A DNA stretch of 64,000 nucleotides from Nannocystis bainbridge (GCF_028368995.1 NZ_JAQNDL010000002.1:960001-1024000); one strand, 5' to 3'. Positions 17,367 through 58,739 are shown, numbered from the stretch's first letter. A program made the numbers and translations. The notes: generated by a model not told the origin, from the letters alone.

Positions 17367-20117
17367 ATGGAGAAGCTCAACAGTGTCTACGAGCCGCAGA
17401 CCGTCGAGTCGCGGCTCTACTCGTGGTGGCGCGACGCCGGTTACTTCAAGCCGGCGCCGGGCGAGCAGCCGACCTACACGGTCGTGTTGCCGCCGCCGAA
17501 CGTCACCGGCCGGCTGCACATGGGCCACGCGCTCACGGCGACGATCGAGGACACGCTGGTCCGCTGGCGGCGCATGTGCGGCGAGTCGGCCTTGTGGCTG
17601 CCCGGCACCGATCACGCCGGGATCTCGACGCAGGTGATGGTCGAGCGCCAGCTCGTCAAGGAAGGCACCACCCGCGAGCAGGTCGGGCGCGAGGCGTTCA
17701 TGCGCCGCGCGTGGGAGTGGACCCGCGAGCACGGCGGCATCATCGACAAGCAGCACGAGGCGCTCGGCGCCTCGCTCGACTGGTCGCGCTACCGCTTCAC
17801 CCTCGATCCGGTGTCGTCGCGCGCGGTGCGAGAGGCGTTCGTCCGCCTCCACGAGGACGGCCTCGTCTACCGCGCCTATCGCCTGATCAACTGGGACTGG
17901 GCCAGCCAGACCGCGCTCAGCGACCTCGAGGTCGAGCACCGCGAGTCCGACGGCTCGCTGTGGCACCTCGCGTACCCGGTCGAGGGCTCGGACGACGTGC
18001 TCGTGGTCGCGACCACGCGGCCCGAGACGATGCTCGGCGACACCGCGGTGGCGGTGCACCCCGACGATCCGCGCTACCGCCACCTCATCGGCCGGCGGGC
18101 GATCCTGCCGCTGACGGGCCGCAAGGTGCCGATCGTCGCCGACCCGATCCTCGTCGACATGAACTTCGGGACAGGCGCGGTCAAGGTCACGCCGGCCCAC
18201 GACTTCAACGACTTCGAGGTCGGCAAGCGCCACGACCTCGACCTCGTGGTCGTGATCGACAAGCACGGCAAGCTCAACGAGAACACGCCGGAGCGGTTCC
18301 GCGGGCTCTCGGTGGCCGAGGGGCGCGAGGTCGTGGTGGCCGCGCTCGCCGAGGTCGGCGCGCTGATCAAGGTCGAGCCGCACAAGCTGAACCTCGGCTA
18401 CTCGCAGCGCACCGGCGTGGTGTGCGAGCCGCTGCCGTCCGACCAGTGGTTCGTGCGCACCAAGCCGCTGGCGCAGCCGACGATCGACGCGGTCCGCAGC
18501 GGCCGCACCAAGATCCTGCCGGAGCACCGCGAGGGCGACTACTTCCGCTGGATGGAGAACATCCATGACTGGTGCATCTCGCGGCAGCTGTGGTGGGGCC
18601 ACCGGATCCCCGCGTGGCACTGCAGCGCGTGCAGCAAGATCACCGTCGGCCGCGAGGACCCGACCGCGTGCGCCCACTGCGGCTCGGCCTCGATCGAGCA
18701 GGACCCGGACGTGCTCGACACGTGGTTCTCGTCGGGCCTGTGGCCGCTGTCGTGCCTCGGCTGGCCCGAGCAGTCGGCCGACCTGCAGCGCTTCTATCCG
18801 ACGGCGCTGATGGAGACCGGCTGGGACATCCTGTTCTTCTGGGTCGCCCGGATGATGATGTTCGGCATGTACTTCGGCGGCGACGTGCCGTTCCGCACCG
18901 TGTTCCTCCACAGCATGGTGCTGGGCGAGGACGGGCGGAAGATGGCGAAGATGCGCGGCAACGTCGTCGATCCGGTCGAGCTCATCGAGCAGTACGGGGC
19001 CGACAGCCTGCGCTTCTACCTGGCGACGATGGCCGGCCAGGACCAGGGCATCGTCTTCAGCCGCCAGCGCGTCGAGGGCTACCGCAACTTCAGCAACAAG
19101 CTGTGGAACGCGGCCCGCTTCGCGCAGATGAACCTCGAGGACTTCGGCCCCGAGGAGCTCGCGGCCTACCGCGCGGAGGTGCTCGAGGCGGCCGACGTCG
19201 GCCCGCTGGCGATCGCCGACCGCTGGATCCTCGCGCGCGCGCTCGAGACCGCGATCGCCGTCGACGACCTGTTCTCGCAGTACCGCCTCGACCTCGCGGC
19301 CCACACCATCTACCAGTTCGTGTGGTACGAGCTGTGCGACTGGTACCTCGAGCTGGCCAAGAGCAACCTCCGCGAGGGCACGCCGCCGGCCGATCGCCGG
19401 GCGACGCAGGGCACGCTGGCGACGGTGTTCGACCTGGTGATGCGGGTGCTGCACCCGATCGCGCCGTTCATCACCGAGGAGATCTGGCAGCGCCTGCCGC
19501 GTCCGGCCGACGCGCCGGCGAGCCTGATGCTGGCGGCGTTCCCCCGCCCGCGCGTGCGTGACGGCGAGAAGGTGCTGGAGCTCGACGGGCCGGTGCAGCG
19601 CGTGGGGGCGATCCTGGACGAGGAGGGCACGCTGCGGGCCCGCGAGGACATGACGGCGCTGGTCGAGCTGACCACCGCGGCGCGCAGCCTGAAGGCCGAG
19701 TTCAAGCTGCCGCCGGCGAAGCGAGTCGAGGTGCTGGTCCGCAGCGACGACCCCGAGATCCGGGCCCGCGTCGCCCGCCTGCACCCGCTGGTCGTCCACC
19801 TGGCCAAGCTGCAGCAGCTGCGCCTGATGGAGCCGCACGAGGCGGCGCCGCGCGAGGCCGTGTCCGAGGTGGTGCGCGGCGCCGAGGTGATCCTGCCGCT
19901 CGCCGGCCTGGTCGACTTCGCGGCCGAGCGCACGCGGATCTCGAAGGAGCTGGAGAAGCTGCGCAAGGAGTCCGACGGCCTGACGGCGAAGCTGCAGAAC
20001 CCCGGCTTCCGCGCCAAGGCCCCGCCCGACGTGGTCGCCAAGGGCGAGACCCGCCTGGTCGAGCTGAACAGCGACCTCGAGCGCCTGCAGGCGACGCTGA
20101 CCCGCCTCGGCGGGTGA
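17367..20117 (+). CDS. valS: Valine--tRNA ligase
   Basis: PPPNVTGRLHMGHAL, PGTDHAGISTQ, ATTRPETMLGD, GTGAVKVTPAHDFND, DWCISRQLWWGH, DVLDTWFSS and a C-terminal coiled coil. Confidence 0.98.
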   Translation: MEKLNSVYEPQTVESRLYSWWRDAGYFKPAPGEQPTYTVVLPPPNVTGRLHMGHALTATIEDTLVRWRRMCGESALWLPGTDHAGISTQVMVERQLVKEGTTREQVGREAFMRRAWEWTREHGGIIDKQHEALGASLDWSRYRFTLDPVSSRAVREAFVRLHEDGLVYRAYRLINWDWASQTALSDLEVEHRESDGSLWHLAYPVEGSDDVLVVATTRPETMLGDTAVAVHPDDPRYRHLIGRRAILPLTGRKVPIVADPILVDMNFGTGAVKVTPAHDFNDFEVGKRHDLDLVVVIDKHGKLNENTPERFRGLSVAEGREVVVAALAEVGALIKVEPHKLNLGYSQRTGVVCEPLPSDQWFVRTKPLAQPTIDAVRSGRTKILPEHREGDYFRWMENIHDWCISRQLWWGHRIPAWHCSACSKITVGREDPTACAHCGSASIEQDPDVLDTWFSSGLWPLSCLGWPEQSADLQRFYPTALMETGWDILFFWVARMMMFGMYFGGDVPFRTVFLHSMVLGEDGRKMAKMRGNVVDPVELIEQYGADSLRFYLATMAGQDQGIVFSRQRVEGYRNFSNKLWNAARFAQMNLEDFGPEELAAYRAEVLEAADVGPLAIADRWILARALETAIAVDDLFSQYRLDLAAHTIYQFVWYELCDWYLELAKSNLREGTPPADRRATQGTLATVFDLVMRVLHPIAPFITEEIWQRLPRPADAPASLMLAAFPRPRVRDGEKVLELDGPVQRVGAILDEEGTLRAREDMTALVELTTAARSLKAEFKLPPAKRVEVLVRSDDPEIRARVARLHPLVVHLAKLQQLRLMEPHEAAPREAVSEVVRGAEVILPLAGLVDFAAERTRISKELEKLRKESDGLTAKLQNPGFRAKAPPDVVAKGETRLVELNSDLERLQATLTRLGG

Positions 20118-58739: not shown

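Follow-up and report, generated by a model that had tools for sequence, protein, structure and literature searches.

Here we describe a 14-bp interrupted palindrome, TG[T/C]CC-N4-GG[A/G]CA (perfect form TGTCC-N4-GGACA), that occurs in great excess throughout the genome of Nannocystis bainbridge, mainly after genes and, in a minority of its copies, within genes at the expense of codon preference. The motif was encountered in a stretch of 64,000 bp (NZ_JAQNDL010000002.1:960001-1024000, that is, C3:960001-1024000 of the host genome, which we label G000; hereafter the window), where an earlier note had reported that 14-bp units coincide with clusters of rare, A/T-ending codons in genes that otherwise use almost only G/C-ending ones. 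The system is larger than that finding. With moderate confidence, we favor the explanation that a clade-specific, hyperabundant and phased palindrome is kept as a DNA signal read by a symmetric protein, and that it overrides the preference for G/C-ending codons.

The G000 genome comprises 11.05 Mb in five contigs, with a GC content of 71.5% and a completeness of 90.5%. Genes were called with a simple in-house caller, which returned 7959 coding sequences (CDS) and designated 81-84% of each contig as coding; the fraction of G or C at third codon positions (GC3) over these CDS was 0.943. For the valS gene of the window, the nearest named relative came from a metagenome-assembled genome of the Polyangiaceae and shared 65% amino-acid identity.

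Abundance, geometry and phasing of the unit

Perfect copies of the unit numbered 16 in the window (eight in called CDS and eight intergenic) compared to 0.05 expected, a count attained in 0 of 100 shuffles, and 1987 in the whole genome compared to 12.8 expected from 5-mer frequencies. Among all 5-mer inverted dyads with spacers of 0-12 nt, TGTCC-N4-GGACA was by far the most enriched, and the next enriched variants were TGTCT-N4-AGACA and TGCCC-N4-GGGCA. A spacing of four was the only one enriched, with each of the other spacings from 0 to 12 represented by at most 16 copies (16 for N3 and 5 for N5). Both halves, at exactly N4, are required. The most over-represented hexamer of the genome was ACATGT and the most over-represented octamer was TGTCCCGA.

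Departures from the consensus were commonest at position 3 (C) and position 12 (G). In the sequence logo, the unit was preceded by [A/C] and followed by [T/G], and the spacer had a YYRR preference: its left half admitted T and hardly ever A, and its right half mirrored this. The palindrome reached no more than 3 bp past the unit in 1041 of the 1188 intergenic perfect copies. No T-run followed the unit on its 3' side in the logo, so that the combination of stem and T-run that marks an intrinsic terminator was absent.

Neighboring units abut in strict 14-bp register with a CATG in common, and the abutting junction GGACATGTCC occurs 956 times in the genome. Distances between CATGs peaked at 14 (n = 3736), 28 (n = 2073), 42 (n = 1586), 56 (n = 751) and 70 bp (n = 383), compared to 72 occurrences at a distance of 13. 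Most copies lay in arrays of 2-7 units (maximum ~20): CATG chains in 14-bp register had two members in 1120 cases, three in 347, four in 276, five in 210, six in 91 and seven in 24, with six longer chains that reached 16 CATGs over 20 units. Spacers mostly differed between the units of one array (12 of the 331 arrays with at least five CATGs were inspected). Identical neighboring units were present in a few of the eight longest arrays, which points to recent local amplification. The longest array (C3:1237916-1238185, outside the window) packs 16 CATGs and 20 units into 270 bp; its (A)CATG boundary and 14-bp register are well kept and its inner TCC/GGA decays, suggesting that the CATG junction is the most constrained part.

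Codon usage at coding copies

Within genes, we compared the number of units to that in synonymous shuffles that preserve protein sequence and per-gene codon usage (20 replicates). Perfect copies in CDS amounted to 772, compared to 21.3 in the shuffles (s.d. 5.9, maximum 34). The excess held in each reading frame (64 versus 1.0, 264 versus 1.6 and 444 versus 18.7) and in every codon-score bin (17- to 55-fold), with unit density declining from 0.224 per kb in the weakest-scoring open reading frames (ORFs) to 0.012 per kb in the most codon-biased genes. Half-sites in CDS exceeded the shuffled number when their partner matched at 5/5 (772 versus 22.8) or 4/5 positions (1722 versus 415, 4.2-fold), did not do so at 3/5 (1873 versus 1820), and reached 0.72- to 0.83-fold of the shuffled number at two or fewer matches.

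A leave-one-out test, restricted to cases with nine matching positions and a synonymous third base at the remaining one, gave the same picture base by base. The motif base was found in 444 of 478 cases at position 1 (T, as NNT; 6% expected), 64 of 68 at position 3 (T, as TGT; 9.7% expected), 264 of 308 at position 5 (C, as TCC; 24.8% expected), 64 of 105 at position 12 (A, as GGA; 2.6% expected) and 264 of 284 at position 14 (A, as ACA; 2.1% expected), with completion rates of 61-99% for the motif. GC3 was lowered at spacer third positions (0.58-0.73) and in the two codons upstream of the unit (0.46-0.80). Units with at most one mismatch held 820 of the 3509 ACA codons in the genome (23%), as well as 190 of 3910 TGT, 362 of 6943 CCT, 249 of 7164 GGA and 131 of 4622 AGG codons (3-5% each), so that the association of units with these five codons, as put forward earlier, is strong for ACA and modest for the others.

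The seven examples in the earlier note were exact in coordinates and sequence (Table 1), and six of their codon strings are in frame with called genes. According to Pfam, the host genes encode valyl-tRNA synthetase (valS), an AidB-like acyl-CoA dehydrogenase (ACAD), an ECF sigma-70 factor, a TonB-dependent-receptor-like (TBDR) outer-membrane protein and RsmE. Two of the seven are perfect units (rsmE and TBDR), two have a 4/5 partner (both in ACAD) and three have a 3/5 partner (valS, the sigma factor and position 57530). The clustering of rare codons at units is borne out, as their frequency exceeds background once protein sequence is held fixed, both in the shuffles and in the leave-one-out test. 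Statistically, the observation is overwhelming for perfect and 4/5 units, while the 3/5 class, although conserved (see below), is not enriched by count. A placement at conserved protein motifs did not generalize: units are spread evenly along genes, and the TBDR site lies in a variable loop. Because the motif itself contains T and A, and hence imposes A/T-ending codons in some frames, the coincidence is also partly built in. Overall, the rare A/T-ending codons are best explained as a by-product of a nucleotide-level signal.

Position of units relative to genes

Perfect copies were ~7-fold denser between genes than within them (0.634 versus 0.085 per kb), with 1188 intergenic, 783 wholly in CDS (39%) and 16 across an edge. 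The general form TGYCC-N4-GGRCA was densest in gaps between convergent genes (2.67 per kb, with at least one unit in 528 of 1296 gaps), followed by co-directional gaps (0.83 per kb; 574 of 3727 gaps), and was scarcest in divergent gaps, which hold promoters (0.23 per kb; 104 of 1452 gaps). A unit was present within 300 nt downstream in 1531 of the 6065 genes that have a downstream gap of at least 30 nt, the first such unit lying most often 5-30 nt after the stop codon, and the codon score of genes with a downstream unit was higher (median 0.362 versus 0.328, p = 1e-32). Units occurred inside 582 of the 7959 genes (~7%).

All contigs contained units, at 2-57 per 100 kb and over-dispersed (dispersion index 4.6), with no obvious restriction to origin or terminus across contigs. 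The 100-kb bins with the fewest units (2-4, compared to a median of ~26; C1 bins 5, 11, 12 and 18, and C5 bin 4) may represent recently acquired DNA or giant gene clusters. Among the 118 genes with units in their divergent upstream gaps, which were listed without a Pfam scan, none stood out as a candidate reader on grounds of autoregulation.

Conservation and substitution among congeners

The window is syntenic in the congeners G010, G001, G005 and G007. For quantitative comparison, ~472 kb of syntenic DNA was taken from each of G010, G001 and G005, to which ~82-85% of a 500-kb G000 stretch aligned at ~90.6% identity. This stretch contains 123 perfect units, including 41 in CDS and 14 intergenic that aligned in all three congeners; another 17 in CDS and 49 intergenic did not, in part because the last 28 kb were not fetched.

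Half-sites of the aligned units were kept while their spacers drifted. In CDS, 385 of 410 half-site positions were conserved compared to 128 of 164 spacer positions, and in intergenic DNA the corresponding numbers were 114 of 140 and 19 of 56. Background levels of full conservation across the three congeners were 0.904, 0.932 and 0.762 at codon positions 1, 2 and 3, and 0.34 and 0.30 for third-position A and T, respectively. Third positions with A or T that fell in half-sites were conserved in 41 of 44 cases compared to 1915 of 6263 elsewhere (Fisher p = 5e-18). The conservation of such positions rose with the number of matches in the partner half-site, from 5/13 at zero matches and 12/37 at one to 19/30, 34/40, 47/49 and 41/44 at two to five (38, 32, 63, 85, 96 and 93%), and many sites with a 3/5 partner, like those in valS and the sigma factor gene, therefore also seem to be under constraint. 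Around the 41 aligned CDS sites, the flanks evolved as coding sequence (0.898, 0.924 and 0.766 conserved at codon positions 1, 2 and 3), with position 3 the least conserved in 39 of them. The unit was perfect in all four genomes at 22 of the 41 sites and differed by one to three substitutions at the rest; at five sites it was perfect only in G000, and the other three genomes shared the same or a similar single mismatch.

Substitutions were polarized on the clade of G010 and G005, with the ancestral state taken where G000 and G001 agree. At half-site third positions, AT-to-GC changes were seven times slower than in the background (4 of 130 versus 566 of 2489, p = 1e-9) and GC-to-AT changes were not raised (14 of 351 versus 3.0%, p = 0.27). 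Third positions in spacers and outer flanks showed GC-to-AT changes in 18 of 351 cases compared to 3014 of 100370 (odds ratio 1.75, p = 0.027). Between genes, the orthologous gap of a congener also had units in 24 of 48, 22 of 46 and 27 of 51 cases when the G000 gap had them, compared to 9 of 196, 10 of 195 and 12 of 204 cases when it did not (odds ratio 17-21). The retention of half-sites while spacers drift, together with that of A/T third positions and the slow reversion from AT to GC, supports selection or molecular drive for the site, one of two causes that the earlier note had proposed.

Origin of the coding copies

The other part of that proposal, an origin by point substitution without insertion, holds for the examples checked but is incomplete, given the in-frame arrays and modules of some ORFs that lack Pfam matches. 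Among congeners, the example sites lie in gap-free columns. The five genomes of the genus all use GGG ACA GGC at the FGTG motif of valS, and 38 other valS loci with the same motif, most commonly encoded by GGC ACC GGC (11 of 38), show no indel. The rsmE site is gap-free in comparison with five other genera of the family (AVLRDR versus ARLTDR, VVLRDR and others), and the MTERTGG site of ACAD aligns without gaps to LTERAGG and MTEKQGG, amino-acid changes included. A three-residue insertion lies just upstream of the second ACAD site (LFSGT) in one orthologue out of two, and the loop that contains the TBDR site has indels in two of five orthologues from other genera. The copies in conserved genes were made by point substitutions, which were mostly synonymous and sometimes changed an amino acid.

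A second class consists of low-scoring ORFs without Pfam matches that contain either in-frame 42-bp (3 × 14) arrays or repeated modules encoding the unit. The repeated modules, LS(K/G)GTG in the window (29743-29988) and those of a seven-copy ORF near C3:1271352-1272990, do not align to congeners. The latter ORF, which is outside the window, carries seven perfect units in the same frame (GA(G/A)GATGTCCnnnnGGACATG, roughly E-D-V-x-x-D-M), of which only the first aligns cleanly to a congener (G005) and the second aligns there only with an indel.

A proposed symmetric DNA signal and its alternatives

Under the explanation we favor, the unit would be recognized in double-stranded form by a sequence-specific DNA-binding dimer of two-fold symmetry, copies of which could bind next to one another along phased arrays. 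The system would mark or manage the 3' ends of genes, whether in topology, transcription end or nucleoid organization, and single sites inside genes would provide additional places to bind. Sites would be born by point mutation and local slippage and then retained by selection acting against translational codon selection. Recognition of double-stranded DNA, as opposed to base pairing, is favored by a combination of features: paired positions show no covariation (mutual information of 0.007-0.02 bits), the spacer TTCG, which is among the commonest (105 of 1987), is nearly matched by its complement CGAA (88), N4 and the 14-bp register are strictly kept, and the palindrome is short.

Several points weigh against this explanation. 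We infer the DNA-binding step solely from symmetry, strict spacing and the lack of covariation, and the conservation described above is compatible with selection and with a persistent, sequence-specific drive alike. The location at 3' ends, together with a unit that sits between a stop codon (5513) and a terminator (5558-5583), implies that many copies are transcribed and makes a reader at the RNA level conceivable; in co-directional gaps, moreover, there is a weak sense bias, with 653 wobble-compatible variants in sense orientation compared to 522 of the antisense kind. A search for sequencing runs returned only small-share metagenome or metatranscriptome data in contig form, which do not display transcript ends. 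Intergenic copies turn over fast, as 49 of 63 perfect ones were not aligned in all three congeners. The comparative data derive from ~472 kb of one contig and from related, non-independent congeners; as G000 diverges most among the four genomes compared, gains specific to it could not be polarized. Finally, some of the array-bearing ORFs called by our in-house method may not be genes.

A molecular drive devoid of cellular function, in which very-short-patch-type repair, biased gene conversion or preferential uptake and recombination regenerates the word and codons simply follow, is in our judgment unlikely. It would account for the enrichment of near-cognate 4/5 sites and for sites that differ by single substitutions, both of which a drive on near-matches would give, for the gradation of the motif across genera (from 2090 to 87 to background) and for the minimum of density in the most codon-biased genes, as for a weak drive opposed by codon selection. 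It would not explain the 14-bp phasing of arrays or the three- to twelve-fold preference for gene 3' ends. Uptake sequences demonstrate that short words can fill coding DNA, yet they are oriented words and not palindromes of fixed spacing. The cyanobacterial word HIP1 likewise fills coding DNA, and its authors used similar conservation to argue for selection over biased repair (PMC5861425, in the portion of the paper available). The enzymes that repair of this type would call for, Vsr (PF03852) and a C5 methyltransferase (PF00145), were not found in G000, whose completeness of 90.5% leaves their absence unproven, and occur in one and three of ten congeners, respectively, which makes Dcm/Vsr-type biased repair unlikely; a D12 adenine methyltransferase (PF02086) is present in G000, as it is in 25 of 31 genomes whether or not they carry the motif. 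We regard as rather improbable an element acting in RNA, either a small hairpin (5-bp stem and 4-nt loop) or a protein-bound RNA motif that would stabilize or end transcripts as a miniature analogue of repetitive extragenic palindromes (REPs) and bacterial interspersed mosaic elements (BIMEs). Base identity is conserved rather than mere complementarity, covariation does not exceed 0.02 bits, and at positions 3 and 12 the unpaired C-A combination is more frequent than the T-G wobble (631 versus 470). The stems are only 5 bp long in a palindrome that rarely extends, the loop length is fixed at four, and no T-run follows the unit, which matched no Rfam family (the sole Rfam match in the window was a tRNA gene at 49072-49145 on the minus strand). 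What such an element would explain is the position of units 5-30 nt past the stop codon in most of the 1531 genes and their rarity in divergent gaps, the one unit placed after a stop codon but ahead of a canonical terminator, and hence within the transcript, another that is embedded in a 13-bp-arm palindrome after valS, the slight excess of G-U-compatible variants on the sense strand, and the frequency of TTCG spacers, which is offset by that of CGAA.

Dispersal as a selfish miniature mobile element, similar to REPs or miniature inverted-repeat transposable elements (MITEs), with coding copies as tolerated insertions, is highly unlikely. Arrays do sit in convergent gaps, where insertion is least harmful, some contain identical neighboring units indicative of recent local amplification, and poorly conserved ORFs without alignable counterparts in congeners contain in-frame 42-bp arrays and LS(K/G)GTG modules. 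However, 1031 of the 1188 intergenic perfect copies have unique flanks, spacers differ between units as they would not among copies of a master, and units in conserved genes stand in gap-free alignments although 14 bp is not a multiple of three. A BLAST search with flanks, in which only 157 of 1188 intergenic copies shared a similar 74-nt flank, led us to reject a dispersed MITE family. The RAYT/Y1 transposase (PF01797) gave 0 matches in G000 at its completeness of 90.5%, while a control search matched 6 of 14 reference genomes. Least probable of all, and hardly credible, is that A/T-ending codons are damage, a local GC-to-AT mutational footprint left by a bound protein or base modification, which was the second cause proposed by the earlier note. 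The elevated GC-to-AT changes in spacers and outer flanks and the depressed GC3 in the spacer and in the few codons that flank the unit on both sides are in line with a footprint, but the elevation is only 1.75-fold and GC-to-AT changes are not raised within the half-sites themselves. There, A and T are specific to position, as the leave-one-out completion demonstrates, and conserved (41/44 versus 31%), and the AT-to-GC rate is seven-fold below background; spacer bases, for their part, follow YYRR and are not random A/T.

A more specific version of the DNA-signal explanation is tentative and, to our minds, possible but doubtful. It holds that this Polyangiaceae lineage has a genome-wide punctuation, in which a symmetric DNA-binding protein would polymerize in 14-bp register on arrays after about one-quarter of genes, with single sites in ~7% of genes, and act as a topological barrier, transcription roadblock or nucleoid anchor. 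If so, selection for the site would be strong enough to fix the rarest codons against a GC3 of 94%, in a trade-off with translational selection, and the system would be a further instance of the unsolved HIP1 phenomenon, independent of the first and easier to work on.

Phyletic distribution and relation to known systems

Perfect 14-mers were found in all ten congeners (114-2090, with the lower figures in fragmented, incomplete assemblies) and in two other genera of the family (161 in G013 and 87 in G011, compared to 1 and 10 for a control pattern). In the other 18 genomes, drawn from the family and class, the count was 0-7, in the range of the reversed-pattern control (0-10), and the 20-mer with full CATG flanks gave the same phyletic picture. 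Based on the intermediate enrichment in G013 and G011, the system may predate the genus and have expanded within it.

The REPs and BIMEs of enterobacteria and pseudomonads are imperfect palindromes of 20-40 nt that form stable stem-loops and are extragenic by definition. Like them, the unit is lineage-specific and palindromic, numbers in the hundreds to thousands, forms arrays in 3' gaps and changes rapidly in copy number; it differs in its 14-bp length, 5-bp arms and lack of covariation, in the 783 of 1987 copies that lie within CDS and in that PF01797 was not found. DNA uptake sequences (DUS; Neisseria) and uptake signal sequences (USS; Pasteurellaceae) are oriented, non-palindromic words that are read singly and often paired near gene ends. 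They resemble the unit as short words present about once per few kb, gained by point mutation in tolerant coding frames and conserved among relatives, whereas here phased arrays are formed and a half-site shows no enrichment unless its partner matches at more than three of five positions. Operators of dimeric regulators, for instance the 5-N4-5 site of the FNR type or the tandem met-box arrays of MetJ, number in the tens per genome and lie in promoters. Symmetric half-sites, a fixed spacing of about one helical turn, independent half-site variation and fixed-register arrays are common to both, but the unit has thousands of copies, is depleted in divergent gaps and occurs within genes.

The closest concept appears to be HIP1 (GCGATCGC) of cyanobacteria, to which the unit is an analogue and not a member. 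Both are clade-specific palindromic words in excess of codon-aware nulls, found within and between ORFs and conserved at orthologous positions (PMC5861425 and PMC4390886, in the portions available). The accessible part of PMC5861425 puts the over-representation of HIP1 at 15- to 300-fold and describes the word as conserved inside ORFs as well as between them, with its function unknown. In contrast to HIP1, which is a contiguous 8-mer, the present motif is a 5-N4-5 interrupted palindrome with a free spacer, forms strictly phased tandem arrays of 14 bp, and is denser between genes and concentrated after their 3' ends. Neither the word GCGATCGC nor the cyanobacterial host is matched here, and searches for two methyltransferase families pointed to no clade-specific partner (PF00145 was not found in G000; PF02086, considered as a candidate CATG-type adenine methyltransferase, is not confined to genomes with the motif and is therefore uninformative). 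Our literature search, which did not extend to subscription-only papers and supplements, retrieved no description of the motif; matches to GGACATGTCC were mostly to papers on p53 response elements or unrelated subjects and none concerned a bacterial repeat. In the available parts of PMC3696898 and PMC3372372, the repeats discussed are limited to CRISPR and general ones.

Genome-saturating words, such as HIP1, uptake sequences and REPs, are rare natural experiments on the conflict between selection or drive at the DNA level and protein coding. In this genome, the conflict is easily read, because the motif accounts for about one-quarter of ACA codons at 94% GC3, and those codons are conserved while ordinary A/T-ending codons decay. 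To our knowledge, the reader of HIP1 has not been found in decades; here, the 5-N4-5 symmetry and the phased 14-bp arrays offer a handle for finding a reader by pull-down or phylogenetic profiling. In practical terms, the motif is a strong lineage marker that biases analyses of codon usage and selection in these genomes, and anyone who recodes genes taken from, or intended for, these producers of natural products should take it into account.

Units and other repeats in the window

Individual units of the window, with their codons and their state in congeners, are listed in Table 1.

Table 1 Units and unit arrays of the window (fractions give the matches of the two half-sites)
Feature	Position	Strand	Location	Remarks
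Perfect unit	2251-2264		Intergenic	Half-sites largely kept in congeners, spacer varies
Perfect unit	5530-5543		17 nt past stop of gene 4011-5513	15 nt before hairpin-plus-T-run terminator 5558-5583
Unit composite (GGACATGTCCCTGCGGACATGCGCATGG...)	6197-6420		Intergenic, convergent gap	Tandem, period ~78-85 bp; unalignable to congeners
Unit cluster	10655-10742		Intergenic	Perfect copies at 10692 and 10721; orthologous congener gap also holds 1-2 units
Weak unit TGAACTTCGGGACA	18160-18173		valS	3/5 + 5/5; GGG ACA GGC at FGTG (of DMNFGTG); CATG at 18158, CAGG at 18172; kept in four congeners
Perfect unit in 13-bp-arm palindrome AACGGGCATGTCC-TCGC-GGACATGCCCGTT	20138-20167		Convergent gap 20118-20345	Begins 21 nt past valS stop
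Weak unit TGCCTCTCGGGACA	25846-25859		ECF sigma factor gene	3/5 + 5/5; CTG CCT CTC GGG ACA at 25845-25859; GGGACA conserved in four congeners, CCG replaces CCT in G010
Four perfect and one near-perfect unit, 48-69 bp apart	29743-29988	+	Pfam-less ORF 28686-32108	Each encodes LS(K/G)GTG (CTGTCCnnnGGGACAGGT); unalignable to any of four congeners
In-frame array, 42-bp period	31591-31697		Pfam-less, low-scoring ORF
Perfect unit TGTCCTTCGGGACA	35935-35948		rsmE	GCT GTC CTT CGG GAC AGG at 35933-35950; half-sites identical in four congeners, spacer varies (TTCG, TTGC, TTTC)
Near-perfect unit TGTTCTCGGGGACA	42204-42217		ACAD gene	4/5 + 5/5, gives GGG ACA; GCT GCT CTT TTG TAC CTG TTC TCG GGG ACA at 42188-42217; identical in all four congeners
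Near-perfect unit TGACCGAAAGGACA	42366-42379		ACAD gene	4/5 + 5/5, gives AGG ACA; MTERTGG as ATG ACC GAA AGG ACA GGT GGA at 42362-42382; both half-sites kept in congeners, spacer varies; CGG ACA in G007
Perfect unit TGTCCTCAGGGACA	45512-45525		TBDR-like gene	TGT CCT CAG GGA CAG at 45512-45526; perfect in G007 and, read across an alignment gap, in G001; one mismatch each in G010 and G005
Perfect unit	47240-47253		46-bp gap between convergent TBDR-like gene and gene 47265-48776	Fills the gap
Array, CATG about every 14 bp	53322-53421	+	ORF 52872-55292 (no Pfam match, low coding score)	Tandem Repeats Finder (TRF) period 42 bp (3 units, 14 codons)
Perfect unit TGTCCTCACGGACA	54155-54168		ORF 52872-55292	Half-sites conserved in four congeners, four different spacers
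Array of GGACATG/GACAGG units, 42-bp period	56467-56572	+	ORF 55289-56830
Weak unit	57530			3/5 partner; GGGACAG
Perfect unit TGTCCTGAGGGACA	60530-60543		GNAT-family gene 59808-60785 (minus strand)	Perfect in G001, G005 and G007; one mismatch in G010
Three tandem 14-bp units (GGACCTGTCGGAAA)	62131-62173		Gap between genes 61106-62092 and 62175-63548

The window contains other tandem repeats as well. ORF 52872-55292 has a 60-bp in-frame repeat at 54882-55123 (four copies, 84% match), each copy of which includes a degenerate unit, GGACATGCTCGAAGGGGCAGG. Around ORF 28686-32108, the upstream gap holds a ~45-bp array of about five copies at 28323-28574 (consensus ACGACGAGCGGTAGTTCGCAAAGGTCCGACCTGAGGGGCCCGGGA; periods of 90 and 135 bp were also scored) that is unrelated in sequence to the 14-bp unit, and a 36-bp repeat (GGCGAGCCGAGCGCGGCGGGTTCACAGGTGTCACGC; 7.3 copies, 89% match) lies at 32262-32525, between this ORF and gene 32742-34868. 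An in-frame 18/36-bp repeat, GGCCGCCCATGCCGGGCA, is present in 5.4 copies at 6526-6647 within gene 6428-8230 (minus strand), and its translation on the coding strand is a repeat rich in Pro, Gly and Met.

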